From contig NZ_JAUMUI010000004.1 in the NCBI RefSeq assembly GCF_030530745.1, positions 24,159 through 88,158 on the forward strand: DNA of 64,000 nucleotides. The letters are read 5' to 3'. Under the pieces are notes generated by a model that searched no databases, was not told the origin of the DNA, and saw only the letters and a program-made list of their open reading frames with translations. The stretch comes from Neisseria sp. Its GTDB lineage: Bacteria; Pseudomonadota; Gammaproteobacteria; Burkholderiales; Neisseriaceae. Shown one piece after another: positions 7,432 through 30,463 of the stretch. The translations under genes and the position numbers were made by a program. Position 1 is the first letter of the stretch. Every line of letters begins with the position of its first letter.

Positions 7432-9615
7432 TTATTTTTTATCGGCTTTGCGTGTATAGGCGGCGTAATAACCGTAACCGCTGCGGCCTTCGCTGCGCAT
7501 ACCGTTGAGTATCACGCCGCTGACTTTGATGTTGCTCTGTTTCAGACGGCTTGTGCTGATGTCGAGCTCCCGTGCGGAAGTGGTGTTGTGCCGCACTACG
7601 AGCAAGGTGGTGCCCGCCTGCTGGCCGACAATGTTGGCATCGGTTACCGACAATACCGGCGGCGTGTCGATAACCACATAGTCGTAACGCTGGCGCGCGC
7701 GCGCCAGCAGGGTAGCGAAACGGCTGTCGAGCAGCAGTTCGGATGGGTTGTCGGGCAGGGGGCCGTGGCCGATAAAGCTCAGGTTGGGGATGTCGGTTTC
7801 CTGCACAGCCTGGCCGGGCGAGAGTTTGCCTTCAAGAATATCGGACAAGCCTTTTTCGGGGCAGGTGGAGAAAATTTCGTCGAGATAACCTTTGCGCATG
7901 TCGGCATCAATCAGCAGCACTTTTTTGCCCGACTGCGCCATGACGGTGGCCAGGTTGGCAGCCGCAAAAGATTTGCCCACATCGGGCGCGCTGCCGGTAA
8001 TCATCAGGATATTGTTTCTGGCGTCTATCATCGAAAAATAGATATTGGTGCGCAGGGCGCGCATTGCTTCAACCGCCGCATCGGTAGGTGCTTCCGTGGC
8101 CAGCAGGTATTTGCCGGAGCTGCTGCCTGCAAACGATTTCAGCTTGCTGCGCAGGGTGTCCCGCCGGTGCTGTGCTTTGGAGAGCGGAATAATCGCGGCG
8201 ACATTCATGCCGGCCGCTTCTATTTCTTCGGGTTTGGTAATGCCGCGGCGCATTGCCGAACGCAGCAGGAACCAGCCCGCGGCCAACATGCCCGCACTCA
8301 TGGCAGCAAGCAGGGTGATCACGGCTTTGCGCGGGGCGACGGGCTGTTCGGGCACGTCGGCATAATCGACAATCCACACATTGCCCTGTGTGCTGGCTTT
8401 CATGATGTTGAGTTCCTGCTGTTTGCCCAGCAGCTGGGTATAGGTGGTTTGGTTGGTTTCTACGTCGCGCGTCAGGCGGATAACCTCCTGCTGGGTGTTG
8501 GGCAGCTCGGCGATTTGCTGGTTGATACGGTTTTTGGCTTTTTCGAGCACGTCGAGTTTGTCGAGGACGGCTTTATACGAGGGGTGTTCTTTGGTATAGA
8601 GTTCGGCCAGTCCGGCTTCTTCGGTGCGCAGCTCGGTGATTTGGGTTTCGATGTTTACCAGGCTTTCGATGGCGCCTTTCGATTCGACCGGAATATCGAG
8701 CGAGCCGCTTTTTTTGCGGTATTCGTTCAGTTTGTTTTCGGCCTCCTGCAGGGTGGCTTTCAAACGCGGAAGTTCGTCGCTGATAAAGGCAAGCCCGCTG
8801 GCAGCAACCTGTACGTCGCGGTTGACTTTCTGGCTTACGTAGTTGTCGGCAATGCTGTTTAAGATTTTGGTGATTTCTTCGGCATCGGTGCCCTTATAGG
8901 CCAGGTTGATGACGGGGCTGGTTTTGCCCTTGCTCGAAACGGTCAGGTTTTGTTTGATGTTTTCTATTGCACTGAGCTTGGAATGTTTCACCAGGCTGAA
9001 ACGCTGGCCGCCCTCGGCCAGAATCTGGTTGACTTGGAGCGTGGTTTGGGCGCCCAGTTTCAACGGTTGGCCGACTTTGCCCTTGAGGGTGCGCCCGTCG
9101 GGCAGTTCGACGGTGTAAAGTTTGCTGCTTTGGGCGGTCAGTACGAAAGGTTCGTTCAGCCACTGCTTCTCAACTTCGAAAGTGTGGATTTTCAATTCGG
9201 GGTCGGTATCGCTGCTCAGGTTGTGAATCAGACGGCCGACAACGGGAAAGTATTTCGGGGTAACGGTTTGGGCAAGCTGCAGATCGTCGACGGTTTTGCC
9301 CAGCACCAGACGCGATTGCGGCAGTTCCAGCTCTGCTTCGAAAGTGAGGTTGCTGCTTTCGGGCATGAACAGGTTGCTGATTTCGGTGAGAATCTGGTTT
9401 TGTTTGGTTTCGATTTCCAGCATGGCGTCGGCGCGGTAGACGGGCGTGGCCGCAAGGCTGTAAAGGGCACCCAAAAAGCCGCCTGCCAAAACGGCAACGG
9501 CAATCGGATATTTATAGTTCAGCAGGTTGCGCAACTGCTGGCCGACATCGATTTCGCCGCCGCTGTTTTGCGGCTGCCGGGGGTATTGCGGGTATTGTGG
9601 GTATTGTTTTGCCAT
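7432..9615 (-). CDS. wzc: Polysaccharide co-polymerase / BY-kinase (Wzc-type tyrosine autokinase)
   Basis: Walker A GSAPDVGKSFAAANLA, DADMRKG, C-terminal Tyr cluster GYGYYAAYTR, two TM segments and a large periplasmic coiled-coil region. Start moved to MAKQYPQY (RBS AAGGA 8 nt upstream) rather than the ORF-track start at 9702. Confidence 0.85.
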   Translation of the reverse strand: MAKQYPQYPQYPRQPQNSGGEIDVGQQLRNLLNYKYPIAVAVLAGGFLGALYSLAATPVYRADAMLEIETKQNQILTEISNLFMPESSNLTFEAELELPQSRLVLGKTVDDLQLAQTVTPKYFPVVGRLIHNLSSDTDPELKIHTFEVEKQWLNEPFVLTAQSSKLYTVELPDGRTLKGKVGQPLKLGAQTTLQVNQILAEGGQRFSLVKHSKLSAIENIKQNLTVSSKGKTSPVINLAYKGTDAEEITKILNSIADNYVSQKVNRDVQVAASGLAFISDELPRLKATLQEAENKLNEYRKKSGSLDIPVESKGAIESLVNIETQITELRTEEAGLAELYTKEHPSYKAVLDKLDVLEKAKNRINQQIAELPNTQQEVIRLTRDVETNQTTYTQLLGKQQELNIMKASTQGNVWIVDYADVPEQPVAPRKAVITLLAAMSAGMLAAGWFLLRSAMRRGITKPEEIEAAGMNVAAIIPLSKAQHRRDTLRSKLKSFAGSSSGKYLLATEAPTDAAVEAMRALRTNIYFSMIDARNNILMITGSAPDVGKSFAAANLATVMAQSGKKVLLIDADMRKGYLDEIFSTCPEKGLSDILEGKLSPGQAVQETDIPNLSFIGHGPLPDNPSELLLDSRFATLLARARQRYDYVVIDTPPVLSVTDANIVGQQAGTTLLVVRHNTTSARELDISTSRLKQSNIKVSGVILNGMRSEGRSGYGYYAAYTRKADKK

Positions 9616-9671
9616 GTTTGGGAAATCCTTTTCATTGTTTTGGGCTTCGAAGCCCGTGATTATATTTTTTA

Positions 9672-10112
9672 TTAAGGCCGAACAGTCAGTTTGAATGCCC
9701 ACTGCTCGGCTGCTTCGTTTATTTTACGGTAAACCGCTTCGAAAACATCATCGGTTTGCCCGTAGGGGTCGGGTATGCCGGTTTGCGGCAGCCACTGGCC
9801 GAACAGCATGGTTTTGCTGCGGGCGCTGGGTTGAATGTCGGCCACGCCGTCGATATGCCACGGTTCCATGACTAAAATCAGGTCGGCCTCTTCACACATG
9901 GCCGCTGTCAGTTGGCGGGCAGTGTGGCCGGCTACGACGACACCGTGGCGCAGGGCGGTTCTGATGGCCTGCAGGTCGGCATCTTTTCCCGCCGGCGCCC
10001 TCAGCCCGGCCGACGAAACCTGCAGATGGGGCATTTTTTGCGACAGCAGCCGCTCGGCGGTGGGGGAACGGCAGATGTTGCCGACGCACACAATCAAAAT
10101 CTTTTGATACAT
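9672..10112 (-). CDS. wzb: Low-molecular-weight protein-tyrosine phosphatase (Wzb)
   Basis: ILIVCVGNICRSPTAERLL active-site CX5R(S/T) motif and DPY motif. Confidence 0.85.
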   Translation of the reverse strand: MYQKILIVCVGNICRSPTAERLLSQKMPHLQVSSAGLRAPAGKDADLQAIRTALRHGVVVAGHTARQLTAAMCEEADLILVMEPWHIDGVADIQPSARSKTMLFGQWLPQTGIPDPYGQTDDVFEAVYRKINEAAEQWAFKLTVRP

Positions 10113-10231
10113 CTTGCAACTGAAAGTCTGAATATGGCGGAAAGCTCCCCTCGGCAATACTGCGAACGCGGCGGCGGGGTTCCGTAAACGGAATATTGCC
10201 GCCTGCGGACAGGTTTTAACCTGCCGTTATA

Positions 10232-11368
10232 TCAGTTGCCGCCGAAAATGTTGTCGATATAGTAAATATTGCTGACCGACGCGGTAACCTGGGAAATGAC
10301 GCGGTTCCAACGGGCAACCGGCGCGGCGGTAACGTAAACCACATCGTCGGCACGCAGTTTGAAGCGGTTGGCCATGGCGTAGGCCGAGGCGTCTTTCAGG
10401 TTGAGCTGGTAAACGTGTATGGGTTTCTCGCGGTCGGACGGCATATTGCGGATAACGAATACGCCCGAAGCGTTGGCGGTTACCTGATTCATGCCGCCTG
10501 CGTTACCCAAGGCTTGGGTGAGGGTGAGGCCGTAGTTGCCCAAGGGCATGGAGGCCTGCCTGCCCACTTCGCCCATTACATGAATTCGGCTGTGTTCGTT
10601 AGTGGGCACGTAAATGATGTCTCCGCCGGAGAGCAGCAGGTTTTGCGACAAATCGCCGTGTTGGCGTATGTCTTGCAGCGAAATGGTGCGCTCTACGCCG
10701 TTTTGCGTCCATTTGATGTTGTTGGTGTCGGCATTGGCGGCGGTTCCCCCGGCCTGGTCGATGGCGTCGACCAAGGTGAGCGGCACGTTGGTCAGCGGGA
10801 GTTGGCCGGGTTTGCCTACCGCTCCGGAAACCGAAACGCGCTGCGAGCGGAACTCGGCCACGTTCACCGAAACCTGCGGGTTTTTGATATAGCGTTTCAG
10901 GCGGGCGGTGAGTATGGACTGCAGTTCGGGCAGGGTTTTGCCTCGCGCGTAAACTTTTCCTGCCAGCGGGTAGGCCAGATAGCCGGATTCGTCAACCCAT
11001 GCGCCGTTGCTTACCTGTTTGCTTTCGGGGTTGGTGCTGATGGGGTTGGGGGTGTTCAGGTCGGGGTGGTGCCAAACCAAGATGTTCAGCACGTCGCCGC
11101 TGCCGATACGGTAGCGGTAACCGGCTTTCTGGCGGTCGAGCGCGGGGTTGCTCAAGGCACGGCGCGGCGCTTCCTCCATGCTCATGAGCAGGCCGGGAGT
11201 AATCGGCCGGATTCTGATGTATTTGCTGATATTGGTATCGGCACGGCTTTCTCCCGGGCCGTAAGATACGGTTTTGCCGCGGGAAGGCAGGCCCGAACCG
11301 GGAACAACGGTGCAGCCCGCAAATGCGAGCATCGATAAGCTGATGATGGTAAATTTTTGAATATTCAC
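10232..11368 (-). CDS. wza: Polysaccharide export outer-membrane lipoprotein (Wza family)
   Basis: Lipobox LAFAGC, polysaccharide export (Poly_export) and SLBB-like regions; operon with wzb/wzc. Confidence 0.85.
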   Translation of the reverse strand: MNIQKFTIISLSMLAFAGCTVVPGSGLPSRGKTVSYGPGESRADTNISKYIRIRPITPGLLMSMEEAPRRALSNPALDRQKAGYRYRIGSGDVLNILVWHHPDLNTPNPISTNPESKQVSNGAWVDESGYLAYPLAGKVYARGKTLPELQSILTARLKRYIKNPQVSVNVAEFRSQRVSVSGAVGKPGQLPLTNVPLTLVDAIDQAGGTAANADTNNIKWTQNGVERTISLQDIRQHGDLSQNLLLSGGDIIYVPTNEHSRIHVMGEVGRQASMPLGNYGLTLTQALGNAGGMNQVTANASGVFVIRNMPSDREKPIHVYQLNLKDASAYAMANRFKLRADDVVYVTAAPVARWNRVISQVTASVSNIYYIDNIFGGN

Positions 11369-11425
11369 GTTTTATTCCATTTTCTAGGGCTGGTGGTATT
11401 GCACGGCCGTCTGAAAAAACGGTTT

Positions 11426-13330
11426 TCAGACACTGTGGCGGTTTTGCTGCCACACCAAATCGCAAATGCCGTCTTTGGGGGCGAAACCTGTCGGTGCTTC
11501 CAATAAGAGTTGTCTTAAAACGGTTTGGTTCATTTCGCCGCATGCCGAATCCATACGGTTAAGTATGTCGGATAATTCGTTCCACGGCAGCATTACTTCG
11601 CTGGCGGTCATAATGCGGGGATGAGTGGTCTTTTGAACCTCATCGCCGATTAACAATTCTTCATATAATTTTTCACCCGGGCGCAGGCCTGTGATTTTGA
11701 TTTCGATGTCGCCGTCGGGGTTTTCGGCATCTTTCACTTGCAGCCCGCTAAGGTGGATCATCTGTTTGGCCAGGTCGATGATTTTCACCGATTCGCCCAT
11801 GTCGAGCACGAATACGTCGCCGCCTTTGCCCATTGCTCCGGCCTGAATCACCAGCTGTGCCGCTTCGGGAATGGTCATGAAGTAGCGGGTGATGTCTTCA
11901 TGGGTGAGGGTGATGGGGCCGCCGGCGGCGATTTGTTTTTCAAACACGGGCACTACCGAGCCGGAAGAGCCCAGCACGTTGCCGAAGCGCACCATGCAGA
12001 AGCGGGTTTGCTGGCCGGGTTCGGCGGCCAGCGCCTGCAGGCAAAGCTCGGCCATGCGTTTGCTCGCGCCCATGGTGTTGGTGGGGCGCACGGCTTTGTC
12101 GGTGGAAATCAAAACAAAGGTTTCCACGCCTGCGTCTATGGCGGCCTGTGCGCAGAAGAGCGTGCCGTACACGTTGTTGCACACGCCTTCGATGGTGTTG
12201 AATTCAACCATCGGCACATGCTTGTAGGCGGCGGCGTGATATACGGTTTGCACGCCGTAGGCCTGCATGATGCTGAAAAGGCGGTTGCGGTGCTGCACCG
12301 AACCCAAAAGCGGCACGATTTCGATATTCATGCCCGAGGCCGTCTGAAACTCGTTGAGCTCTTTGTCGATGCTGTATAGCGAGAATTCCGACAATTCGAA
12401 CAGCAGCAGTTTGGCGGGGCGGTAGCGGATAATCTGGCGGCACAGCTCGGAGCCGATGGAGCCGCCCGCTCCGGTTACCAGCACCACTTTGCCCGTGATG
12501 TCCGCCCCCATCAGATCGGGGCAGGGGTCGACCGGATCGCGGCCGAGCAGGTCGATCACCGATACTTTTTTCAGCGAACTGATGCTGATTTTGCCGTCAA
12601 CCAAATCCTTCATGCCCGGAATGGCCAGCACTTCGCAGGGATAGGCCTCAAGGCGCTGGATAATCAGCTTGCGCCGCTCTTGGGATGCGCTGGGAATCGC
12701 CAGCAGGATTTTTTCCACGCCGTAGCGTTTGATTAAGTCTTCGATTTCAGACGGCCTGTAAACGGGCAGGTCGTAAATGGTGGTGCGCTGGATAGCGCTG
12801 TTGTCGTCTACAAAGGCCACGGCGTTGTATTCGTTTACCTGTTTGACGGCTTCGAGCAGCTGGCGGCCGGACTGCCCCGCGCCGTAGATAATCACCGGTG
12901 CCATCTGTTTGCGGTGGCTGCGGTCGGTGAGCACGGCTTTCAAAATGATGCGCGAACTGGTTACCAGCACCACCAGCATCAGAAAATACACTACCGGCAG
13001 TGCCAGCCGCAGGCGCTGTTCGAATACCAGCATGCTGAAGAAGAAAACCGCAGCCGACACTACGCAGCCCAAAACGGCGGTGCTGAGGATGCGGGTGCTC
13101 ACATAGCGGGTAACGGCGCGGTAGAGGCCCAGCCGCACAAACAGTAAGATGGTCAGCCCGGCGGTGGAGGCGAACGCCAGCCAGTTGGCAAAGCTACCCC
13201 ATTCGTTGAAATAGTTGGCCTTCAGGCTTTGGGCAAACCAAAAAGCCACAAAAATCACCAAGGTATCGTGGATAACGAAAAAGGTTTTTTTCACATTGCG
13301 GGGCAATGCAAGTAAGGTTTCCAAGTTCAT
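11426..13330 (-). CDS. Membrane-bound UDP-HexNAc 4,6-dehydratase (PglF/WbpM/CapD family)
   Basis: 4 N-terminal TM helices; Rossmann VLVTGAGGSIGSELCRQI; 634 aa, typical of PglF/WbpM. Confidence 0.85.
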   Translation of the reverse strand: MNLETLLALPRNVKKTFFVIHDTLVIFVAFWFAQSLKANYFNEWGSFANWLAFASTAGLTILLFVRLGLYRAVTRYVSTRILSTAVLGCVVSAAVFFFSMLVFEQRLRLALPVVYFLMLVVLVTSSRIILKAVLTDRSHRKQMAPVIIYGAGQSGRQLLEAVKQVNEYNAVAFVDDNSAIQRTTIYDLPVYRPSEIEDLIKRYGVEKILLAIPSASQERRKLIIQRLEAYPCEVLAIPGMKDLVDGKISISSLKKVSVIDLLGRDPVDPCPDLMGADITGKVVLVTGAGGSIGSELCRQIIRYRPAKLLLFELSEFSLYSIDKELNEFQTASGMNIEIVPLLGSVQHRNRLFSIMQAYGVQTVYHAAAYKHVPMVEFNTIEGVCNNVYGTLFCAQAAIDAGVETFVLISTDKAVRPTNTMGASKRMAELCLQALAAEPGQQTRFCMVRFGNVLGSSGSVVPVFEKQIAAGGPITLTHEDITRYFMTIPEAAQLVIQAGAMGKGGDVFVLDMGESVKIIDLAKQMIHLSGLQVKDAENPDGDIEIKITGLRPGEKLYEELLIGDEVQKTTHPRIMTASEVMLPWNELSDILNRMDSACGEMNQTVLRQLLLEAPTGFAPKDGICDLVWQQNRHSV

Positions 13331-13433
13331 CGTTTTATTATCCGGTTGTTATTGTTTTGGAAAAGCATATTCTCGATCGGGATAACAGTGTTTTTTCAGA
13401 CGGCCTGCCGAAGGGGAGGCCGTCTGAAAGCTT

Positions 13434-14609
13434 TTATGCGGTTGCTTCTGCGAGCACTTCCTGTATGTTTCTGCAGCAAAACGCCATTTCTTCGGGCGTG
13501 ATGGTCGGGTGCACCAAAAACATGAGCGAGGTTTCGCCCAGCTCGACGGCGTTTTTCAGCCGCTCTTTGGGCCGCCACGGCGTGTTGTCGAAGGCTTTTT
13601 CCAAATATACCTCCGAGCAGCTGCCCTGATAGCAGGGCACTTTGCGTTCGGCCAAGGTTTCGACGATGCGGTCGCGGCTCCAGCCCGCTTTCAGGTTTTC
13701 CGGTTTCACAAACGCATAAAACTTATATTGCGCGTGTTCGATATAGTCGGGCACGTTTACCAAGCGGATGCAGGCAAACGGTTTGAGCACTGCTTCGAGC
13801 TGCGCGGCGTTGGCTTGGCGTTTGGCCGTCCAATCGCTCATGCGCTTGAGTTGGATGCGGCCGATAACCGCCTGCATCTCCGTCATGCGCCAGTTGGTGC
13901 CGAAGCTCTCGTGCAGCCAGCGGAAGCCGGGCGGGTGCTGGCGGTTATAAACAGCATCGTAGCTTTTGCCGTGGTCTTTATACGACCACATTTTCGACCA
14001 CAAATCTTTATCGTTGGTGGTAACCATGCCGCCCTCGCCGCCGGTGGTCATGATTTTGTCTTGGCAGAACGACCACGCGCCGACATGGCCGATGGAGCCC
14101 ACGGGTTTGCCTTTGTATTTGGAGCCGTGCGCTTGGGCGCAGTCTTCGATAACCCACAGTTTGTGTTGTTCGGCCAGCGCCATAATGCCGTCCATTTCGG
14201 CGGGCATGCCGGCCAGGTGAACCACGATGACGGCTTTGGTGTTCGGCGTTAAGGCCGCCTGAACGGTTTCGGCGGAAATGTTCTGGCTGTTCAAATCCAC
14301 ATCGGCAAACACGGGGTTGGCACCGGCGGTTACGATGGCGGAGGCGGAGGCGAGAAACGTGCGCGAGGTTACGATGACATCGTCGCCCGCGCCGATGCCC
14401 ATGGCTTTGAGGGCAACGTCGAGCGCCAGCGTGCCGTTGCCCAGCGCAACGGCGTATTGCGTGCCGGCGAATTCGGCAAATTCTTTTTCAAACTCGCGGC
14501 ATTCGGTGCCTGTCCAGTAGTTCACTTTGTTAGACAGTAAAACGCGCGAAACGGCGTCGGCCTCTTCTTGGGTGAAGCTGGGCCACGGGGCGATAGAAGT
14601 GTTAAGCAT
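13434..14609 (-). CDS. DegT/DnrJ/EryC1-family PLP aminotransferase (UDP-4-keto-6-deoxy-HexNAc 4-aminotransferase, PglE-like)
   Basis: Conserved GNGTLALDVALKAMGIGAGDDV and the PLP-lysine region. Start set at MLNTSIAPW (cat at 14607-14609), 2 nt after the upstream gene's stop. Confidence 0.85.
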   Translation of the reverse strand: MLNTSIAPWPSFTQEEADAVSRVLLSNKVNYWTGTECREFEKEFAEFAGTQYAVALGNGTLALDVALKAMGIGAGDDVIVTSRTFLASASAIVTAGANPVFADVDLNSQNISAETVQAALTPNTKAVIVVHLAGMPAEMDGIMALAEQHKLWVIEDCAQAHGSKYKGKPVGSIGHVGAWSFCQDKIMTTGGEGGMVTTNDKDLWSKMWSYKDHGKSYDAVYNRQHPPGFRWLHESFGTNWRMTEMQAVIGRIQLKRMSDWTAKRQANAAQLEAVLKPFACIRLVNVPDYIEHAQYKFYAFVKPENLKAGWSRDRIVETLAERKVPCYQGSCSEVYLEKAFDNTPWRPKERLKNAVELGETSLMFLVHPTITPEEMAFCCRNIQEVLAEATA

Positions 14610-15384
14610 CGGCTGATCCTGCAAAAAGGCTGGTGGAATCTTTGGGGGCGGTTTCTTCCAAAATACGGCGGTCGACCAAGGTGTATTTTTGGCCGTCGAT
14701 TTCGACGTAGGCGCCGTCGTAAGGGGGGAACCAGAATGCACGCACTTTTCTGGCCACGTCGTCGCCGGGGCGGATTTCTTTCATGGCTTCCATTTCGGCG
14801 CGGCTGGTGTATCTGCCGCCCTCATTGGGAAAAGCAGGCAGCTTGGTTTCGCTTTCAACCGCCTGCATAATCAGGCGTTTGGCAAAGGCTTCCAGCACCT
14901 GCATCGATTCGCGTTCCAGCGATTGCGCGGTGGCGGTGTCGGGATCCATCGCAAAGCGCACCACTTCGATTAAGTCGCCGGTATCGATGGAATCGTCGAT
15001 GTAGTGGGCGGAAATGCCCCATTCGGAGAGGCCGTCGAGAATCGCCAGATTATAGCCGCCCGTGCCTTTGTATTCGGGCAGGATGGCGGGGTGGAAGTTG
15101 ATGGTGCCGCGAGCGGGTACGGTTAAAAAGTCGTCGCGCAGTTTGCGCCAGTATAAAACCGAGATGCCCAAATCGTATTTCAGACGGCCTTCGCGCATGG
15201 CTTCGAGCGCGGTGTCGAAAGTGTAGAGAGGCAGCCCCAAACGTTTGGCCGCCGCCGTGGTGGGCGAACCTTGCAGGTGGCTGTCGGTTAACACGCCGAC
15301 AATTTCTATGCCGCTTTGGGAGGATAGAAATTCCAAGAGGACGGCGGAAACTTTTTTCCGGCCCATAAAAAGAATTTTGGTCAT
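14602..15384 (-). CDS. Formyl_trans_N-family protein (putative sugar N-formyltransferase)
   Basis: Formyltransferase motif NFHPAILPEYKG (cf. HxSLLPxxRG) and catalytic-Asp region ISAHYIDDSIDTGD; sits between the aminotransferase and the ATP-grasp gene. Confidence 0.6.
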   Translation of the reverse strand: MTKILFMGRKKVSAVLLEFLSSQSGIEIVGVLTDSHLQGSPTTAAAKRLGLPLYTFDTALEAMREGRLKYDLGISVLYWRKLRDDFLTVPARGTINFHPAILPEYKGTGGYNLAILDGLSEWGISAHYIDDSIDTGDLIEVVRFAMDPDTATAQSLERESMQVLEAFAKRLIMQAVESETKLPAFPNEGGRYTSRAEMEAMKEIRPGDDVARKVRAFWFPPYDGAYVEIDGQKYTLVDRRILEETAPKDSTSLFAGSADA

Positions 15385-15540
15385 TGCTTCATCCTTTTTG
15401 TTTGAAAGGTAGATTTAAAGTTTAGGTTTGAATTTTCAGGTTGGGACGCGCTGCCCCGGCATTTGTTTTCAGACGGCATGATGCGGTTCGGGTTTGTTTC
15501 GTTTTTTTTACCGGTAAGGCAGCATGCCGTTGTTGAGTGT

Positions 15541-18276: not shown

Positions 18277-18287
18277 TTCAGACGGCC

Positions 18288-20539: not shown

Positions 20540-20542
20540 GTA

Positions 20543-23006: not shown

Positions 23007-23055
23007 AATGTATTGCCTTGTTATTATTAAAATACGTCAGGTTTTCGGGTGCGGC

Positions 23056-24474
23056 TTATCTTTTCAGACGGCCTTTCGCTTTCGCCGTTAAAGCGCCGAT
23101 GGCGGCGCGGTGTTTCCGATACAGCGCGGCCAATGCGGCCAGCCAGAACAGGGCGAAAATATAATAATTGCCGCTGTTGCCGGAATAAGTGTAAACCAGG
23201 CATACCGCCAGGCAGGCAAAGGTGGTGCCGTAGAGTTTGGCGCGCGGCAGCGGCAGCCACAAGCGGGCCGAAGCCTCGCTTTTCAACACCGAAAACACCC
23301 AGAAAGCCACGGCGGTGGACATGGCCGCACCTTTCGCGCCCAAGGCGGGCACCAAAACATATAAAAGCGCGGCGTTCACCAGCAGGGCGGTTATCGAAAA
23401 CATCGTAATCAGCCAGGTTTTTTTGCTCACGTTGATGCCGATGCCGGTTACTTCGGTTAAGGTGTAGAGCAGCGGAAACAGCATGCTCGAGAGCAGGATA
23501 AACTGCACCGGCGCATATTTTTCAGGCAGTATCCAAGTAACCAGCGGCGAAAAAATCCCCACAATGCAGATGAGTGCGGCGATCAGGTCGGTCATCGATT
23601 CGGTGATACCGCCGATTTTATCCAAGTTGGTGTTTTCTTTCACCCATCTGAACACCATCGGTGCCCAGATAACCGAAAAAATATTCTGGAAAATCAGCGC
23701 AATCGCGCCGAAACTCACCGCCATCGAATACACGCCCAGCTCCGACAGCCCCGCCAGCTCTTTCAGCAGAAAACGGTCTATCGAGGTAAAGCCCCAATAG
23801 GCCAGCCCGCCCAAAGCCAGCGGCACGCCGTAGCGCAGGCTTTCTTTCAGCAGCGGAGCCGACAGCGGTGCGGCGGCGGCGGCTTTCAGCTCGCGGCGCG
23901 TTTGCAGGGCCAAAATGCCCACCGTTACCGCCTGCGACAACGCATAGGCCAGCACCAGCGTCAGGGTGTCGGTGGGCAGGGCGGCGGCCACATAAACCAG
24001 CACAAACACCAAAATCAGCACTTTCGGCGTGAGCTGGCTGATGGAAAAGGCGAAGGCTTTTTCCTGCATGCGCAGAATCAGCGCGAAATAGCGCGACAGC
24101 ACCGAGCTGGTAAAAAACACCAAACACAGCAAACCCAAAACGCTGCTGCTGATTTCGAGCACCGCTTCAGACGGCCACGACAGCCGCCATACCGCCACGC
24201 CGCCGCAAAACAGCAGGGTCAGCAGCAGCGGCGGCACAATCACGGCTTTAAACAGGGCGGCTTTGTTTTCGGCGGCGTGGTATTCGCGGATATACGACTG
24301 GTCCAAACCCAAACCGGCCAGCGTGAGGGTGAGTGCCGACACGGTTTGCAGCAGCACGATACGGCCGATGTCTTCGGCAGGGTAATACCAAGAAATCAGC
24401 GGCAGGGAAACGATTCCGATGGCGGCGCTGCCTACGGGGCCGAGCGCGTAGCCCAATAATTTTCGTGCATTCAT
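23056..24474 (-). CDS. wzx: Wzx-type flippase (polysaccharide biosynthesis protein, MOP superfamily)
   Basis: 12-14 TM helices; start set at MNARKLLGYALGP. Confidence 0.75.
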   Translation of the reverse strand: MNARKLLGYALGPVGSAAIGIVSLPLISWYYPAEDIGRIVLLQTVSALTLTLAGLGLDQSYIREYHAAENKAALFKAVIVPPLLLTLLFCGGVAVWRLSWPSEAVLEISSSVLGLLCLVFFTSSVLSRYFALILRMQEKAFAFSISQLTPKVLILVFVLVYVAAALPTDTLTLVLAYALSQAVTVGILALQTRRELKAAAAAPLSAPLLKESLRYGVPLALGGLAYWGFTSIDRFLLKELAGLSELGVYSMAVSFGAIALIFQNIFSVIWAPMVFRWVKENTNLDKIGGITESMTDLIAALICIVGIFSPLVTWILPEKYAPVQFILLSSMLFPLLYTLTEVTGIGINVSKKTWLITMFSITALLVNAALLYVLVPALGAKGAAMSTAVAFWVFSVLKSEASARLWLPLPRAKLYGTTFACLAVCLVYTYSGNSGNYYIFALFWLAALAALYRKHRAAIGALTAKAKGRLKR

Positions 24475-24510
24475 AAAATAACAGAAGCGTAGTCGGGCAA
24501 CGCTTCTCAG

Positions 24511-24671
24511 GTAAAACAAAATAAAAACGATACGGCGGTCTCGCCTTAGCTCGAAGAGAACGATTTTGTAAACTGCTGAAACAGCAACAGAATCGGTTCC
24601 GTACTATTTGTTTGTACTGTCTGCGGCTCCGCCGCCTTGTCTCGTTTTTATTTTGTTTTACTGCAAAAGTT
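24511..24671. mobile_element. Correia-like repeat-enclosed element with variant 20-bp TIRs (gtaaaacaaaataaaaacga ... tcgtttttattttgttttac)
   Basis: Internal sequence tacggcggtctcgccttagctcgaagagaacgattttgtaa...atcggttccgtactatttgtttgtactgtctgcggc matches the Correia core; perfect terminal inverted repeats. Confidence 0.6.
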
Positions 24672-24749
24672 TTTCAGACGGCCTTCGGAACACTGCAGCG
24701 CGTACGTTCCGAAAGCGCCTGCCTATTTTTATAGGCCGTCTGAAACCCA

Positions 24750-25829
24750 TCAAACGGCGGCTTTGAGCGCTTCGGCCACCTGCCGCACCTGCGCTTCGGT
24801 CAGATACGGGTGCATGGGCAGGCTCATCACTTCTTCGGCAGCTTTGTCACCCACGGGCAGCACGGCATCGCCGGCCACGGCGGGCTGTTTGTTGAGCGGA
24901 ATCGGATAGTGCACGGCAGTGGGAATGCCTGCTTCTTTCAGCTTGGCCTGCACCGCGTCGCGGTTTTTTACGCGCACGGTGTATTGCGCGTAGGCGCTGC
25001 GGTTGTGCGCTTCGATAAACGGTGCGGCGATACCGGCTTCGGCAAGGGCGGCGGCATACCGGGCGGCTACCTGCTGGCGCAGCTGCATTTCTTCTTCGAG
25101 TATGGCCAGTTTGGGCAGCAGAATGGCGGCCTGCAAGGTGTCGAGGCGGCTGTTTACGCCCACGCGGATATGGTGGTAGCGGCGGTCTTGGCCGTGGCGG
25201 GCAATCTGGCGGATAACGGTTGCCAGCTCTTCGTCGTTGGTGAACACCGCGCCGCCGTCGCCGTAGCAGCCCAGCGGTTTGCTGGGGAAGAAGCTGGTGC
25301 AGGCGATGGTGGTGAGGTTGCAGGATTTGCGGCCTTTGTAGGTGGCGCCGAAACTTTGTGCGGCGTCTTCAATCACGGGCAGGTTGTACTTGGCGGCGAT
25401 TTTGTTGATGGCATCGAAATCGGCGCATTGGCCGTAAAGCGAAACGGGGATAATCGCACGGGTTTTATCGGTGATGGCCGCTTCGAGTTTGGCGGGGTCG
25501 ATGTTGTAGGTGGATTCGATTACATCCACATACACCGGCTTGGCGCCCAGCAGCGCCACGGTTTCTGCGGTGGCGATGTAGGTGAAGCCGGGGGTGATGA
25601 CTTCGTCGCCCGCGCCCACGCCCAAGGCCATCAGCGCGATTTGCAGCGCGTCGGTGCCGTTGGCGACGCTGATGCAGTATTTCGCGCCGCAGTAGGCTTT
25701 CAACTGCTCTTCAAGCTCGGCCACTTCGGGGCCGAGGATATAGGCGCCGTGGGCGAGCACTTTTTGGATGTTGGCGTCGATTTGGGTTTTGATGCGCGCC
25801 TGTTGTGCGGCGAGATCGATAAACTGCAT
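24750..25829 (-). CDS. wbpE: DegT-family aminotransferase, WbpE/WlbC-like (UDP-2-acetamido-2-deoxy-3-oxo-glucuronate aminotransferase)
   Basis: GAYILGPEVAELEEQLKAYCG, ANGTDALQIAL; clustered with wbpB/wbpD/wbpA homologs. Confidence 0.8.
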   Translation of the reverse strand: MQFIDLAAQQARIKTQIDANIQKVLAHGAYILGPEVAELEEQLKAYCGAKYCISVANGTDALQIALMALGVGAGDEVITPGFTYIATAETVALLGAKPVYVDVIESTYNIDPAKLEAAITDKTRAIIPVSLYGQCADFDAINKIAAKYNLPVIEDAAQSFGATYKGRKSCNLTTIACTSFFPSKPLGCYGDGGAVFTNDEELATVIRQIARHGQDRRYHHIRVGVNSRLDTLQAAILLPKLAILEEEMQLRQQVAARYAAALAEAGIAAPFIEAHNRSAYAQYTVRVKNRDAVQAKLKEAGIPTAVHYPIPLNKQPAVAGDAVLPVGDKAAEEVMSLPMHPYLTEAQVRQVAEALKAAV

Positions 25830-25861
25830 GGTGTTTGTCCTTCGCGTATTTGATCGGAATA

Positions 25862-26443
25862 TTATTCTGATTTGCTTAAGAGGCCGTCTGAAAGCGTATA
25901 AACGGCGCCGGTGTGGGAGCAGACGGCGCTGCCGCTGCCGCCCACGGGCAGGTCGAGCTGTTCGCCGTATTCGCTCATCCAGCCGATCTGGCGGGCGGGC
26001 ACGCCGACCATCAGGGCGTAGTCGGGCACGTCTTTATTCACCACCGCGCCCGCGCCCACAAAGGCGAAACGGCCGATGGTAACGCCGCAAACGATGGTGC
26101 AGTTGGCGCCCAGCGTGGCGCCTTTTTTCACCAGCGTATCGCGGTATTCGCTTTTGCGCTCGATTAAGGAGCGCGGGTTATACACGTTGGTGAACACCAT
26201 GCTGGGGCCGCAGAACACGCCTTCTTCGAGATAAACGTTGTCGTAAACGGAAACGTTGTTTTGGATTTTGCAGTTGTCGCCGATTTTCACGCGGTTGCCC
26301 ACAAACACGTTTTGCCCGAACGAGCAGTTTTCGCCGATTTCGGCACCGCCGCAGATGTGCACGAAATGCCAGATGCGGCTGCCGGCGCCGATTTTTGCGC
26401 CTTCGTCAACGATGGCGCTGGGGTGTACGGTGTAGTCGGTCAT
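25862..26443 (-). CDS. wbpD: Left-handed beta-helix N-acetyltransferase, WbpD/WlbB-like
   Basis: Hexapeptide repeats [50 protein letters not shown]; start at [12 protein letters not shown]-overlapping the upstream gene's stop. Confidence 0.75.
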
Positions 26444-27480
26444 TTCAATAACTCCTGTAAGGCCGCTTCGCCCTGAAGCTGCGCCGTCGTCCATTTGCCG
26501 CCGTAGATGTGCAGCACGTTGCCTATACGCTCAAACGCCCATTCGCGGGTGGCGTCGCTCGGGTTGGCGGCGCTTTTGAGCAGCGGGCGTACGCCCGAAA
26601 AGCTGCCGCTCACATCTGCCGCCGTGAGTTTTTCGCTGTGGTAGGCGTTGTAGGCGGCCAAAAGGTAATCGGTTTCGGTTTCAGACGGCCTTTCCGCTTC
26701 GGGGTGATTTTGGCGGATTTCGGTGGTGCCTATCAGGGTTTTACCTTGGTAGGGCAGCACGAAGAAAATCCGTTTTTCTTGCGGAACCGGCAGCATCAGC
26801 GCCTGTTTTTGTTCGCGGTCGATAAGGATGTGGCTGCCGCGCACCCAGTCGATGGTGTAGGCGGGTTCTCCGCCCTGCTGCCGGCGCAGTTCCATCGCCC
26901 ACGGGCCGGTGGCGTTGGCGATGCGCTCGAAACCGTCGAGTTCGGCCAGGGTTTCGATTTTATGCCGCTCTTGCACGTTTACGCCCAAGCTGCGGCATTG
27001 TTCCACCACCCAGCGGCCCAGTGCGAAATCGTCCATTTGTGCGTCGTAGAACGAGAATGCGCCTTTGAGGCCGTCTGAAAGCAGGGTGGGGCAGCGCTCG
27101 AGCGTTTCGGCTTTGTCGAACCACGAGCTGCGCGGAAAGCCGCTGCCCGCGGCTAGAAAGTCATACAGTTTGGTGCCGATGCCGATCTGCCATTTGGGGC
27201 GGCCGCGCCCTTCGTAAACGGGAAACAGCAATTCCAGCGGGCGGCACAGGTGCGGGGCTTGCGCCAGCCAGAAACGGCGGGCGTGCAGGGCTTTTTTCAC
27301 CAGCGCAAACTGGCCGGTTTCAAGGTAGCGCAGGCCGCCGTGCAGCAGTTTGGACGACGATTGGCTGGTGTGCGCCATCACGGTGTCCTGTTCGAACAGC
27401 GTAACGGCGTGGCCTTGTTTGGCCGCCGCCCAAGCGGTGCACGCGCCTATGATGCCTGCGCCTGCTACGGCGATTTTCAT
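26440..27480 (-). CDS. FAD-dependent oxidoreductase, DAO superfamily with GlpD-like N-terminus (short, 346 aa)
   Basis: [32 protein letters not shown] Rossmann; [13 protein letters not shown] as in GlpD ([13 protein letters not shown]). Confidence 0.7.
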
Positions 27481-27495
27481 GTTTGGACGGCCTTA

Positions 27496-28548
27496 TCAGT
27501 AAACCAGTGGCAGCGACACGGTTTTGTTGTCGCGGGCGGAAAGATAAGCCGCGATTAAGAGTTCCAGCGATTTCAAACCTTCGCGTCCGTCGGTAATCGG
27601 CTCGGCTTGGCCGCGCATCACGTCAATCACGTTTTTGTAGTAGAGCGGGTGGCCGAAACCGTAAACCGAGGTGGTTTCGTAGTTGGCGGTTTTGACCTGT
27701 TCGTCGTAGTCGCGGCTGTCGGCGAAGTTCCATTCTTGGATTTCGTTAACCGCCACGCCGCCGATGCGCACGGTGCCGGTTTCGCCCAAAATGGTAATCG
27801 AGCCTTCGAGGTTTTTCGGGTAGGTGCACATGGTAACGGCCATCGAGCCGAGCGCGCCGTTGCGCCAGCGGATGTTGACCACGCCGGTGTCTTCGGTTTC
27901 GATGTCGCGGTGGGTGGAAACCATGGCCTGCACGTCCTGCACGGGGCCGATAAGCCATTCCATCAGGTCAACATAGTGGCTGGCCTGGTTCATGAACGCG
28001 CCGCCGTCGAATTCCCAAGTGCCGCGCCAGCCGCCGCCCTGGTCGTAATATTCCTGCGGACGCGTCCAGAATACGTTGAGGTGCACCATGGCGATTTTGC
28101 CGAAACGTTTTTCTTCTACGGCGCGTTTGAGCATTTGCAGCGTGGCGTTGAGGCGGTTTTGTTTGACCACGAACAGGCGTTTGTCGGCTTTGTCGGCGGC
28201 GTGAACCATGCGTTCGCCGTCGGCGAGGCGGGTGGCCATCGGTTTTTCGGTTACCACGTGAAAGCCCGCTTCCAATGCCTGCACCGCCTGTTCGGGGTGT
28301 TGGCCCGAGGGGGTGGTGAGCACGATGATGTCGGCGTCGGTTTCCGCCAGCATCTGTGCGTAGGAAGCGTAGCCTTTGGCGCCGGTTCGCTCTACGGCTT
28401 TTTGCAGGTTTTCGGGGTTGGTGTCGCACACGGCCACCACTTCGCAATCGTCTTTCAGGGTTTCGAACGAACCGAAATGGTTGTTGGAAATGCGGCCGCA
28501 GCCGGCCAGCGCGAATTTGATTTTTCGGTTTTGAATGGTTTCGTACAT
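27496..28548 (-). CDS. wbpB: Gfo/Idh/MocA-family oxidoreductase, WbpB/WlbA-like (UDP-GlcNAcA 3-dehydrogenase)
   Basis: N-terminal KFALAGCGRISNNH Rossmann, characteristic of WbpB; neighbours wbpE/wbpD. Confidence 0.8.
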   Translation of the reverse strand: MYETIQNRKIKFALAGCGRISNNHFGSFETLKDDCEVVAVCDTNPENLQKAVERTGAKGYASYAQMLAETDADIIVLTTPSGQHPEQAVQALEAGFHVVTEKPMATRLADGERMVHAADKADKRLFVVKQNRLNATLQMLKRAVEEKRFGKIAMVHLNVFWTRPQEYYDQGGGWRGTWEFDGGAFMNQASHYVDLMEWLIGPVQDVQAMVSTHRDIETEDTGVVNIRWRNGALGSMAVTMCTYPKNLEGSITILGETGTVRIGGVAVNEIQEWNFADSRDYDEQVKTANYETTSVYGFGHPLYYKNVIDVMRGQAEPITDGREGLKSLELLIAAYLSARDNKTVSLPLVY

Positions 28549-28582
28549 ATTTGAATCCTATGATATGCATAGAGGCCGAGAT

Positions 28583-28713
28583 CTTTGCAAAACCCCCATC
28601 TGCGGCGCATTTCTGCGTTGTGCGCTGCTCGCTCGCCTGCCTAACTCCTGTTATATCTGCGCTCGTTGCGCTGCTACGCCTTGAACTGCGCCGCAGATGG
28701 GGGTTTTGCAAAG
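28583..28713. repeat. 131-bp element bounded by perfect 27-bp inverted repeats (ctttgcaaaacccccatctgcggcgca / tgcgccgcagatgggggttttgcaaag)
   Basis: Seen directly. The interior carries direct repeats tgcgctgct...cgcc. The tail ttttgcaaaggtctcaggccgtctgaaaa recurs at 61075-61105. Confidence 0.55.
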
Positions 28714-28765
28714 GTCTCAGGCCGTCTGAAAAACAGGGTCTTTTCAGACGGCCTTTCTTTAAACT

Positions 28766-30070
28766 TTATGCTTTCACTACGTTATCGGCTTTGCCCTGGT
28801 ATTTGCCGCGGGTGTCGATAATCAGCTTGGCGTGCTGTTTGAGCAGGCCGTAGTCGAATTTGTCGTGGTCGGTGGCCAGCACCACACAGTCGAACTTCGC
28901 CACGTTTTCGGCCGTTAACGGCTCGCTTTTCAGGTCGAATTTGTGTTCGCGCATTTTCGGAAACACGGGCACGTGCGGGTCGCTGTAAGACACTTCCGCG
29001 CCCAAATCACGCAAGAGTTCCATCACTTCGACCGAGGGGCTTTCGCGCATATCGTCCACGTTTTTCTTATAGGCGATGCCCAAAACCAGAATTTTGCTGC
29101 CTTTGATGGAGCGGTTGTGGTCGTTGAGCGCCAGCGCGGTTTTGTTGACCACATATTCGGGCATGGCCGAGTTCACTTCGCCCGCCAGCTCGATAAAGCG
29201 GGTGTTCACACCGTATTCGCGCGCCTTCCAAGTCAAATAGAAGGGGTCGATGGGAATGCAGTGGCCGCCCAGGCCGGGGCCGGGGTAGTAGGCCACGAAG
29301 CCGAACGGTTTGGTGGCGGCGGCGGAAATCACTTCGTGAATGTCGATATCCATTTTGTCGGCCACGATTTTCATCTCGTTTACTAGGCCGATGTTCACTG
29401 CACGGTGGATGTTTTCCAACAACTTGGTCAGTTCGGCTGCTTTGGTGGAGCTTACCGGTACCACTTTGTCGATGGCCGGCTGGTAAAGCGCAATGCCTAC
29501 TTCCAAACATGCAGGCGTGTGGCCGCCGATAACCTTGGGAATGGTGCGGGTTTCAAAATCGGGGTTGCCCGGGTCTTCGCGCTCGGGCGAATACACCAAA
29601 AATACGTTTTCGCCCACTTTCAGGCCGCCTTCTTCCACGCGCGGCAGCAATTCTTCTTCGGTGGTGCCGGGGTAGGTGGTGGATTCGAGCGACAACACTT
29701 GGCCGGCGCGCAGATAAGGTTTCACGGCGTCGGTGGTATCGATAACGAAGCTCATGTCCGGCTCGCGGTATTTGTTGAGCGGGGTGGGCACACACAGAAT
29801 CACCGCTTCCACTTCGCCGATGCGCGAGAAGTCGGTGGTGGCTTCGAACAGGCTGTTTCTGGCGGCGGCGATTTTACCGGCGGGAATGTGCTCAATATAG
29901 CTTTCGCCATTATTGAGTTTGCGCACTTTTTCTTCGTCGATGTCGAAGCCCAACACCTGATAACCGATGTCGACATAGCGCAGCATCAGCGGCAGGCCGA
30001 CGTAACCTAAGCCAACAATGCCGATTTTGGCAGATTTGTCGGCGAATTTCTGAATGGTGGTATTTTTCAT
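28766..30070 (-). CDS. wbpA: UDP-N-acetyl-D-glucosamine 6-dehydrogenase (WbpA/TviB/WecC family nucleotide-sugar dehydrogenase)
   Basis: [15 protein letters not shown]-binding, catalytic Cys region [12 protein letters not shown]; start set at MKNTTIQKF. Confidence 0.8.
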
Positions 30071-30463
30071 GAAGGTATTTCCGTGTGATAAAAAAAAGAA
30101 ATTCTTAAGATGCAATTCACATAGTTCGACCGTTTTCGGAAGCATTGGTTTCATCAAAACAGGCGCATAACGGGAGGTTTACACAACGATAACAAATAAC
30201 GGGCATGACTGTTTGGATATGACAGGCAAAAGAAAGCGGAAGCTTCTTTCGGAAATTGTGCAAAGCGGGCAGACATTTTCCGATAAGTGTTTGAGCGGAT
30301 ATTACAAAGGAATAAAACACCCGTAAAAGAAACCGGACCGCCCGGTTTGGTTGCGGGCGTTCCGGTGCTGGAAAGGCGCAGATGCCGTTTACAAAAATTT
30401 TCACCTTGGCGGAGGTAAAGGCTTTCGTTTTTCGATAAATGAAATTATTTACAATAAAGACGG

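Follow-up and report, generated by a model that had tools for sequence, protein, structure and literature searches.

We examined a 64,000-nucleotide stretch of a Neisseria sp. contig (the window; all coordinates refer to it as a whole) and find that positions 7432 to 30157 hold an expanded, commensal-type form of pgl, the protein glycosylation core locus of Neisseria. Our favored interpretation, to which we give a probability of about 0.6, is that this locus builds a single lipid-linked oligosaccharide with two fates, serving protein O-glycosylation and also a polymer exported through a Wzy/Wzc/Wza pathway. We have little reservation in equating the locus, by both position and sequence, with the pgl core locus found across the genus, in its expanded commensal form; that it also makes a polymer we rate at slightly better than even odds. 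Gene identities were assigned from Pfam and NCBIfam scans and from comparisons with solved structures in the Protein Data Bank (PDB). The locus comprises 19 intact, consecutive open reading frames (ORFs) on the minus strand, separated by short gaps in an uninterrupted run, between lapAB on one side and ribD/nrdR on the other (Table 1). A preliminary description of the window had recognized this 23-kb extent and both flanks correctly; its gene list counted five family 4 glycosyltransferases (GT4s) where there are four, and overlooked a formyltransferase-like protein, an ATP-grasp ligase, and a flavin adenine dinucleotide (FAD) oxidoreductase.

Proteins of the window were compared by tblastn with the pgl locus of N. 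meningitidis CP016677, in which the genes run nrdR-ribD-pglF-pglG-pglH-PGT-ATP-grasp-HAD-pglC-pglD-avtA, where PGT stands for a phosphoglycosyltransferase and HAD for a haloacid dehalogenase-type hydrolase, and pglH is broken by an insertion sequence (IS) element carrying an rve integrase (8023-8988 of the retrieved stretch). The window shows the same gene order at the same chromosomal site, beside nrdR-ribD. Identity to the meningococcal counterpart was 89% for the PGT, 85% for the PglC aminotransferase, 72% for both the PglD dehydratase and the ATP-grasp protein, 84% for the GT4 at 17107 (PglH), 68% and 65% for the GT4s at 18288 and 19469 (both PglG), and 46% for the Wzx flippase (PglF). The meningococcal stretch gave no tblastn match to the formyltransferase, the Wzy_C gene, the GT4 at 21819, the Wbp cassette, or wza-wzb-wzc. 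An artificial fusion of PGT and ATP-grasp, used as a protein search query, matched meningococcal "pilin glycosylation protein PglB" (76 to 77% over the PGT domain of these 413-amino-acid proteins) as well as a meningococcal ATP-grasp protein (72%) and orthologues listed in UniRef as "Protein Pglb2"; proteins with PGT and ATP-grasp fused are also known. The initiation genes, which had been called chimeric and merely similar to those of pilin glycosylation, are accordingly pgl orthologues at the pgl site.

This assignment agrees with published descriptions of the genus. Hadjineophytou et al. 2019 defined the Neisseria pgl core locus, and the gene order of the window fits their definition (PMC6959607). 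Scattered among the genes of commensal pgl loci, the legend of their S2 Fig already lists ORFs labeled "O-antigen ligase like," "HAD hydrolase," and "formyl transferase" (PMC6959607). Rhodes et al. 2022 match the PGT, aminotransferase, dehydratase, and flippase of the N. musculi locus to meningococcal pglB, pglC, pglD, and pglF (78%, 82%, 71%, and 45% identity), the orthologues being mapped to NMB1818, NMB1820, NMB1821, and NMB1822 (PMC9140248). Glycoproteins have been demonstrated in N. oralis, N. mucosa, N. flavescens, and N. elongata, and the O-glycans are GATDH-Hex-diNAcHexA-HexNAc in N. oralis and diNAcBac-Glc-diNAcHexA-HexNAc in N. elongata, where Hex denotes hexose, HexNAc N-acetylhexosamine, diNAcHexA di-N-acetyl-hexuronic acid, and diNAcBac di-N-acetylbacillosamine (PMC6959607). 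The window locus contains the whole commensal pgl pathway in one block.

Relatives of Wzc were collected in a species scan with one genome per bacterial species. They lay directly downstream of pglD in 40 Neisseria and Uruburuella species representatives, and in 40 of the 40 retrieved loci the whole wza-wzb-wzc set occupied this place. DNA similarity was unbroken in all 40, up to the contig ends, from wzc through wza, the dehydratase, aminotransferase, formyltransferase, ATP-grasp, and PGT genes to the first GT4s. Identity of Wzc to the window protein was 88% in N. dentiae, 81% in N. musculi, and 75% in N. montereyensis, and about 65% in N. sicca, N. mucosa, N. subflava, N. flavescens, N. perflava, N. 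oralis, and N. weixii. The nearest named species is N. dentiae, at approximately 90% nucleotide identity and 85 to 99% protein identity to the window (53 to 98% for N. musculi); both species show the order nrdR-hypothetical-ribD-wbpA-wlbA-FAD-wlbB-wbpE-wzx-GT4-Wzy_C-GT4s-PGT-ATP-grasp. In N. zoodegmatis the same run is seen from the hypothetical gene and ribD on, with one GT4 fewer and nrdR a few kilobases further upstream. N. oralis, for which the O-glycan is known, shares the run from the PGT gene to pglD-wza-wzb-wzc.

A set of Wza, Wzb, and Wzc had been presented as unusual for Neisseria; it is ordinary for the genus and already published. Stein et al. 2011 drew a homologous cluster of N. 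sicca 4320 that includes all three proteins (PMC3078933, Fig. 8), and reported that most commensals have it in largely complete form whereas the pathogens lack it (PMC3078933). Because the expanded form occurs in many commensal lineages, including N. dentiae, N. musculi, and Uruburuella, parsimony suggests that the extra genes disappeared in the clade of the pathogens. A commensal-type wzc locus with a similarity pattern like that of N. sicca and N. mucosa is also seen in two records titled N. meningitidis 1273_NMEN and N. lactamica 919_NLAC; these records are probably mislabeled or mixed assemblies.

The three export proteins, which the preliminary description had recognized, gave family matches and retain complete motifs, and they look fully functional from their sequences. 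Wzc has two transmembrane segments, Walker A (GSAPDVGKS) and Walker B (VVIDTPP) motifs, and a C-terminal tail with four tyrosines (SGYGYYAAY). All three genes are under purifying selection (dN/dS 0.09 to 0.24), with values of 0.12 to 0.18 for wzc against N. dentiae, N. musculi, and N. sicca, 0.09 to 0.17 for wzb, and 0.16 to 0.24 for wza. No wzi was seen in the locus.

The candidate polymerase is the Wzy_C-family membrane protein. About 120 homologues were found at E ≤ 1e-5 among 5.8 billion proteins, every named one from Neisseria or Uruburuella, and the gene is likewise under purifying selection (dN/dS 0.17 to 0.31). An AlphaFold2 model has 12 helices at a predicted local distance difference test score (pLDDT) of 75, and sequence and profile searches of the PDB with this protein were empty. 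In N. elongata, NirK was glycosylated as before when NELON_11105, which follows pglP, was disrupted (PMC6959607). By synteny, NELON_11105 is probably the ligase-like gene; if so, the protein lies outside the protein-glycan route and would be free to act as a polymerase or a lipid A-core ligase. Of the Wzx/Wzy pathway assigned to the locus earlier, Wzx, the PGT, and a Wzy_C protein are present, and polymerase and ligase are indistinguishable from a match to WaaL only.

From these gene identities a pathway can be proposed. The PglD-type dehydratase and PglC-type aminotransferase would convert UDP-GlcNAc to a UDP-4-amino-4,6-dideoxy sugar, whose 4-amino group would be acylated by the PglB2-type ATP-grasp enzyme, not by an acetyltransferase, to give a GATDH-like basal sugar that the small PGT would load onto undecaprenyl phosphate. 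Extension would be carried out by PglH, two PglG paralogues, and the GT4 in the pglP position, one added residue being 2,3-diacetamido-2,3-dideoxy-glucuronic acid from a donor made by WbpA, WlbA, WbpE, and WbpD (PglJ/K/M/N). The predicted unit begins with a GATDH-like basal sugar, followed by Glc and by one or two (di)N-acetyl-hexuronic acids, and ends in HexNAc. PglF/Wzx would flip the lipid-linked tetra- or pentasaccharide to the periplasm, where a PglO/PglL oligosaccharyltransferase encoded outside the window could move single units to proteins, and the Wzy_C protein could polymerize the unit under the control of Wzc and Wzb, with Wza exporting a capsule or exopolysaccharide (EPS).

The assignment of the extension steps follows work on related species, in which PglH adds Glc to the lipid-linked basal sugar; in N. 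elongata, PglG adds (di)N-acetyl-hexuronic acid, and the GT4 PglP, encoded immediately 3' of pglF, places the terminal HexNAc (PMC6959607). The pglH orthologue of the window sits directly upstream of the PGT gene, matching the published arrangement (PMC6959607), and the likeness of the GT4 at 21819 to PglP is positional. The two PglG-like GT4s share 65% identity and represent tandem paralogues. N. zoodegmatis has one pglG copy; N. dentiae and N. musculi have two, one N. musculi copy being shortened to 313 amino acids. This pattern suggests that the glycan varies through duplication of pglG.

The initiating sugar is predicted from the gene content to be of the PglB2/ATP-grasp type (GATDH-like) rather than di-N-acetylbacillosamine. 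In N. meningitidis the ATP-grasp module of PglB2 gives the 4-glyceramido sugar GATDH (PMC6959607). No bacillosamine 4-N-acetyltransferase is present in the locus, its sole hexapeptide acetyltransferase being the WlbB type of the Wbp cassette; the PGT has neither a PglD_N nor a hexapeptide domain, and the ATP-grasp gene takes the acetyltransferase position. The "bacillosamine-type" initiation of the preliminary description therefore stands for its first two steps and gives way at the N-acetyltransferase, which is replaced by ATP-grasp. For nomenclature, the meningococcal-type PglD dehydratase corresponds to PglF in Campylobacter naming. The formyltransferase-like protein has a sugar N-formyltransferase as its closest solved relative.

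It is plausible that the ATP-grasp enzyme ligates phosphoglycerate and that a HAD hydrolase then removes the phosphate. A HAD gene of about 225 amino acids occupies the equivalent of the 15385-15540 gap in N. dentiae and N. meningitidis and lies right after the ATP-grasp gene in N. zoodegmatis; in N. musculi, N. sicca, and N. oralis, the space beside the ATP-grasp gene corresponds to it in size. The HAD gene has been lost in the window lineage. The loss is complementary: the window lineage is without HAD and keeps the formyltransferase, whereas the meningococcal pglB2 locus keeps HAD and has a Correia remnant at the place of the formyltransferase (window, 15385-15540; retrieved loci L002, 3638-4315, and L059, 10962-11648 and 11904-11955). 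Both genes are present in N. dentiae and N. zoodegmatis and, judged by gap size, in most other commensals.

The WbpA/WlbA/WbpE/WbpD set corresponds to pglJ, pglK, pglM, and pglN, which make the UDP-di-N-acetyl-glucuronic acid donor for PglG (PMC6959607). A UDP-GlcNAc3NAcA pathway without the 2-epimerase had been recognized earlier and is borne out here: all four enzymes were matched, and none of the 19 locus ORFs has an Epimerase_2 (WbpI/WlbD) domain. Since the locus, which was the scope of this search, has no 2-epimerase, the diacetamido uronic acid is predicted to be in the gluco form. Related cassettes of Nitrospira and Pigmentiphaga do include Epimerase_2. The prediction is consistent with the published description of "di-N-acetyl glucuronic acid" in N. 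elongata (PMC6959607).

Several points weigh against the proposed dual fate. No pglO/pglL candidate was found among the window ORFs scanned, and with this gene outside the window, protein glycosylation in this organism is a conclusion we infer from its relatives; pglL always maps outside the core locus (PMC6959607). The missing HAD gene means that the acyl group may differ from that of GATDH. The Wzy_C protein is unusually conserved for a polymerase, nearly all homologues being 50 to 85% identical to the query. A fold search with its model gave the ligase WaaL (7TPG; TM-score 0.51) as the sole significant PDB match, and its invariant Arg and His residues in and around the large loop presumably resemble the catalytic residues of WaaL. 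The protein may be a WaaL-type ligase, which would leave the locus without a polymerase. The literature searched contains no demonstration of a polymer from this locus in any Neisseria, and no paper linking the pgl core locus with wza-wzb-wzc. Speaking for a polymer, beside the complete motifs, fixed position, and purifying selection of the export genes, are transposon sequencing (Tn-seq) tables of N. musculi, in which mutants are depleted after mouse passage, with log2 fold changes of -5 to -6 for the PGT, -4.4 for a PglH-like glycosyltransferase, -3.7 for the ATP-grasp gene, -3 for the formyltransferase, -4.0 for Wzc, and a mild -1.2 for Wza; that study discusses only pglB and pglC, as pilin glycosylation genes (PMC9140248). 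The depletion of wzc mutants could, on the other hand, arise from toxic intermediates rather than from loss of a useful polymer.

The alternative that survives best, which we regard as rather unlikely, is that the locus makes the O-linked protein glycan only, with the Wzy_C protein as a WaaL/PglL-type ligase or an accessory and no capsule or EPS built from this unit; in a variant, the Wzy_C protein might add a single unit to lipooligosaccharide (LOS) or to a subset of proteins, and wza-wzb-wzc might serve another polymer or go unused here. Agreeing with such a view are the pgl orthology of every biosynthetic gene, the short oligosaccharides that are all that has been reported on commensal glycoproteins, the "O-antigen ligase like" label given to the Wzy_C ORF in the S2 Fig legend of PMC6959607, the fold match of that protein to WaaL, and its conservation far above that of a typical Wzy. 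The WaaL match does not, however, discriminate polymerase from ligase, because no solved structure matched better by fold or sequence. On the other side, wza-wzb-wzc is fixed right after pglD in 40 species under purifying selection, and no other polysaccharide synthesis genes accompany it. We know of no role for a Wzc/Wza pair without a polymer made by Wzy or a synthase (group 1/4 systems), which also counts against a locus devoted to protein glycans. The preliminary description had itself named a protein O-glycosylation pathway alone as the outcome that would overturn it, and this proves half true: the biosynthetic genes are pgl, and wza-wzb-wzc and the Wzy_C gene may go beyond it.

A second alternative, that the unit is polymerized and ligated to lipid A-core as an O-antigen, turning LOS into lipopolysaccharide (LPS), we consider highly improbable. 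It was proposed by Stein et al. 2011 for the N. sicca locus, where the Wzy_C gene was called polymerase/ligase (PMC3078933), and the fold of the Wzy_C protein resembles WaaL; however, Wzb, Wza, and a Wzc of the polysaccharide co-polymerase 2a (PCP-2a) class are present, which is the mark of capsule or EPS export, and the locus has no stand-alone Wzz, a Wzz domain occurring only within Wzc. Stein et al. also traced the O-repeat of strain 4320, a disaccharide, to a different, strain-specific region, and the locus is found in commensals that they predicted to have LOS, not LPS (PMC3078933). Marginally less probable still is the reading first given for this DNA, a dedicated group 1-type capsule or EPS locus unusual for Neisseria with initiation genes merely like those of pilin glycosylation, for although the full set of Wza, Wzb, Wzc, Wzx, Wzy_C protein, PGT, and GT4s would fit it, the genes are sequence and positional orthologues of meningococcal pglF, pglG, pglH, pglB2, pglC, and pglD beside nrdR-ribD, the locus is common in commensals and already published, and the single assigned pglB, pglC, pglD, and pglF homologues of N. 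musculi lie here, with pglB and pglC mutants read as glycosylation mutants in PMC9140248.

If the dual-fate interpretation is right, commensal Neisseria carry an unstudied Wzy-dependent surface polymer, and the pgl system of the pathogens is explained as a reduced capsule locus. In a more tentative generalization, which we would give somewhat less than an even chance, most non-pathogenic Neisseria both attach one unit by PglO and polymerize and export it as an additional capsule or EPS besides the ABC-type one, and the pgl locus of N. meningitidis and N. gonorrhoeae is a stripped remnant minus the polymerase, wza-wzb-wzc, and the diNAcHexA cassette. This would bear on the loss of surface structures in pathogens and on glycan cross-reactivity between commensals and pathogens, and the tractable N. 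musculi mouse model has the same locus. The finding mainly reconciles two published descriptions, the "LPS-like cluster" of 2011 and the "pgl core locus" of 2019; its remaining interest lies in the connection of the pgl system to capsule-type export machinery.

A GlpD-like flavoenzyme lies between the WlbA-type dehydrogenase and the WlbB acetyltransferase genes and is conserved in class II WlbA cassettes. The tightly coupled order wbpA-wlbA-FAD-wlbB-wlbC, with the flavoenzyme gene at 26440-27480 in the window and at 8001-9041 in retrieved loci L050, L052, and L054, recurs in three Neisseria species as well as in Thauera, Pigmentiphaga, and Nitrospira, and a role of this enzyme in diacetamido-uronic acid synthesis appears undescribed. 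In the P. aeruginosa class of 3-dehydrogenase, the by-product D-2-hydroxyglutarate is recycled by a flavoenzyme (PMC8651671). The WlbA-type enzyme of the window belongs to the Bordetella/Chromobacterium sequential-mechanism class, without use of 2-oxoglutarate (class split per PMC10622841). The window flavoenzyme keeps the motifs GGLRYLE, GSHI, SGVRPL, and GGKxTT. We take these to be GlpD substrate-binding residues. A 2-hydroxyglutarate oxidase that recycles the WbpB co-substrate was considered for this protein and rejected in view of the dehydrogenase class and the retained GlpD residues. More speculatively, it may be a dedicated redox partner of the 3-dehydrogenase, for example, in a glycerol-3-phosphate/dihydroxyacetone phosphate shuttle.

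The DNA is of Neisseria type, with 80 copies of the DNA uptake sequence (DUS) GCCGTCTGAA in 64 kb versus 0.17 expected; 57 of the 80 are of the AG dialect, which we take to be typical of non-pathogenic Neisseria species. The GC content of the locus (0.562) and its DUS density match those of the flanks (GC 0.55 to 0.57), and the locus is therefore regarded as native; recent horizontal acquisition is rejected on the same grounds. Inverted DUS pairs form hairpins at gene boundaries: at the pglC/pglD junction (13394-13429), after wbpA (28719-28754), after wzc (7393-7416), and between ribD and its upstream neighbor (31598-31653). These possibly act as terminators or attenuators dividing the locus into several transcription units.

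Two repeat elements interrupt the intergenic spaces of the locus. The first, a Correia repeat enclosed element (CREE)-like sequence, is approximately 80% identical over 113 to 133 bp to copies in N. meningitidis and commensals; its terminal repeats are unlike what we take to be the canonical Correia ends, TATAGTGGATTAA. The second is followed by the DUS pair at 28719-28754, and related copies occur in N. zoodegmatis and Neisseria sp. CCUG12390. The corresponding gaps in N. dentiae, 115 bp versus 230 bp at the Correia site and 65 bp versus 217 bp at the other, are too short for either element. The preliminary description was right about the presence of both elements (129 bp, not 131, for the second); as to the internal promoters it had suggested, a consensus promoter scan gave no match inside either element and an overall count at chance level, and a consensus terminator scan was also at chance level.

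Beyond the locus, a 112-amino-acid ORF without a Pfam match lies at 6994-7332, between wzc and lapA, and is 53 to 54% identical in N. dentiae and N. musculi; the N. musculi gene in this position is annotated as a zinc-finger-domain protein and, on low read counts, appears to be strongly depleted by Tn-seq. A low-GC region (34200-48800; GC 0.35 to 0.50), rich in inverted DUS pairs and small ORFs, encodes an HlyD-family protein (39894-41267) and two C39-peptidase ABC transporters (41766-43880 and 44930-47131); it adjoins a TolC-type gene (32852-34189) and looks like a bacteriocin or peptide export island. An 1841-amino-acid FrpA/C-like protein with RTX calcium-binding repeats is encoded at 49025-54550, and N. 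dentiae has a 2156-amino-acid RTX protein a few genes upstream of nrdR (retrieved locus L056, 1-3409).

Table 1. Features of the pgl-type locus and its flanks, in window coordinates
Feature	Position	Strand	Evidence and remarks
lapB	5409-6578		Flank
lapA	6585-6902		Flank
wzc, PCP-2a tyrosine autokinase	7432-9702	-	GNVR, WZC_N, P-loop; 726 bits to Wzc model; likely true start ~9615
wzb, low-molecular-weight phosphotyrosine phosphatase	9672-10112	-	LMWPc; CX5R motif CVGNICRS; longest ORF reaches 10157
wza, outer membrane polysaccharide export (OPX) lipoprotein	10232-11368	-	Poly_export, two SLBB, Wza_C helix, lipobox FAGC
Membrane UDP-GlcNAc 4,6-dehydratase, PglD (NMB1822) orthologue	11426-13330	-	Polysacc_synt_2, 427 bits
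DegT aminotransferase, PglC (NMB1821) orthologue	13434-14609	-	Makes UDP-4-amino-4,6-dideoxy-GlcNAc intermediate (predicted); start (14609) from gene calls on identical contigs
Formyltransferase-like protein	14602-15384	-	N/H/D motif kept (INFHPAILP...DTGD)
Non-coding gap	15385-15540		156 bp; one DUS
ATP-grasp ligase, PglB2 C-terminal module orthologue	15541-16506	-	72% identical to meningococcal ATP-grasp
Small monotopic PGT, PglB/PglB2 N-terminal domain	16493-17110	-	205 amino acids; Bac_transf, 225 bits
GT4, PglH orthologue	17107-18279	-	84% identical to IS-interrupted meningococcal pglH; longest ORF to 18339
GT4, PglG-like paralogue 1	18288-19358	-	68% identical to meningococcal PglG
GT4, PglG-like paralogue 2 (tandem duplicate)	19469-20539	-	65% identical to meningococcal PglG
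Wzy_C-family 12-transmembrane-segment membrane protein	20543-21838	-	Wzy_C, 47 bits
GT4, pglP position	21819-23006	-	Just 3' of flippase; position as in PMC6959607
Wzx-type flippase, PglF orthologue	23056-24519	-	Polysacc_synt; 46% identical to meningococcal PglF
Correia-family (CREE-like) element	24511-24661		151 bp, between flippase and wbpE-like gene; 23-nt inverted ends, 96% complementarity
WbpE/WlbC-type UDP-3-keto-GlcNAcA aminotransferase, one of pglM/N pair	24750-25829	-	606 bits to P. aeruginosa WbpE, PDB 3NU7
WbpD/WlbB-type 3-N-acetyltransferase, one of pglM/N pair	25862-26443	-	346 bits to WlbB, PDB 3MQG; longest ORF to 26494
GlpD-like FAD oxidoreductase	26440-27480	-	346 amino acids
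WlbA-type UDP-GlcNAcA 3-dehydrogenase, pglK equivalent	27496-28548	-	560 bits to PDB 3Q2I, 494 to 3Q2K
Inverted-repeat element	28584-28712		129 bp; perfect 26-nt inverted ends; imperfect arms 28561-28735
UDP-GlcNAc 6-dehydrogenase (WbpA type), pglJ equivalent	28766-30070	-	NDP-sugar dehydrogenase model, 430 bits; longest ORF to 30157; 434-amino-acid gene call on identical contig
ribD	30464-31558		Flank
nrdR	within ORF 32281-32895		Flank

Set against the pgl core locus (PMC6959607), the window has the gene order and nrdR-ribD neighbors of N. meningitidis, 65 to 89% identity for PglB2, PglC, PglD, PglG, and PglH (46% for PglF), an ATP-grasp protein (PglB2) for acylation of the basal sugar, and, like the published drawing of N. 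oralis, interspersed ORFs of the "O-antigen ligase like" and "formyl transferase" kinds. It differs in forming one contiguous block with pglJ/K/M/N directly upstream and wza-wzb-wzc directly downstream, in the duplication of pglG, in having PGT and ATP-grasp as separate, overlapping ORFs, and in the missing HAD gene. The pathogens are without the Wbp cassette, ligase-like gene, pglP-position GT4, formyltransferase, and wza-wzb-wzc at the nrdR-ribD site. With the N. sicca 4320 cluster the locus shares the run of PGT, ATP-grasp, formyltransferase, aminotransferase, dehydratase, Wza, Wzb, and Wzc at 62 to 88% protein identity, whereas the N. sicca cluster has the HAD gene, is flanked by cidAB/LysR instead of lapAB, and carries an isolated WlbA-like gene beyond wzc; no wbpD or wbpE genes are seen in the retrieved part of N. 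sicca, which ends inside pglG.

The sugar nucleotide cassette resembles the Wbp/Wlb UDP-ManNAc3NAcA pathway of P. aeruginosa O5 and Bordetella pertussis in its very strong structure matches to WbpE, WlbB, and WlbA and in a WbpA-type 6-dehydrogenase, and departs from it in lacking the WbpI/WlbD 2-epimerase, in the sequential class of its 3-dehydrogenase, and in the extra gene for a GlpD-like flavoenzyme. With E. coli group 1 and Klebsiella cps loci it has in common the Wza OPX lipoprotein, the Wzb low-molecular-weight tyrosine phosphatase, a Wzc autokinase with a C-terminal tyrosine cluster, and a putative Wzx/Wzy-type assembly; here, in contrast, the export genes stand at the 3' and not the 5' end, no wzi was seen, the tyrosine tail is short (four Tyr), and the predicted initiating sugar is a trideoxy-diamino hexose, not Glc or Gal.

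The closest functional parallel to the proposed dual fate is the K locus of Acinetobacter baumannii, whose repeat unit goes into capsule as well as PglL-dependent O-glycosylation (Lees-Miller 2013, cited by PMC10249906) and which in KL3 also has GlcNAc3NAcA genes (PMC3628348). K loci such as KL3 of ATCC 17978 share with the window wza-wzb-wzc, wzx, a small PGT, and GT4s, along with wzy, for which the window has a candidate. They also have a dga (WbpB/D/E-like) route to UDP-GlcNAc3NAcA in common with it, and their oligosaccharyltransferase is encoded elsewhere; this likeness implies no sequence orthology. To our knowledge, the Acinetobacter 3-dehydrogenase cassette is without a flavoenzyme gene. 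The use of one undecaprenyl diphosphate-linked unit for both capsule and protein O-glycans has been demonstrated in Acinetobacter and would, on our interpretation, extend to the locus described here.

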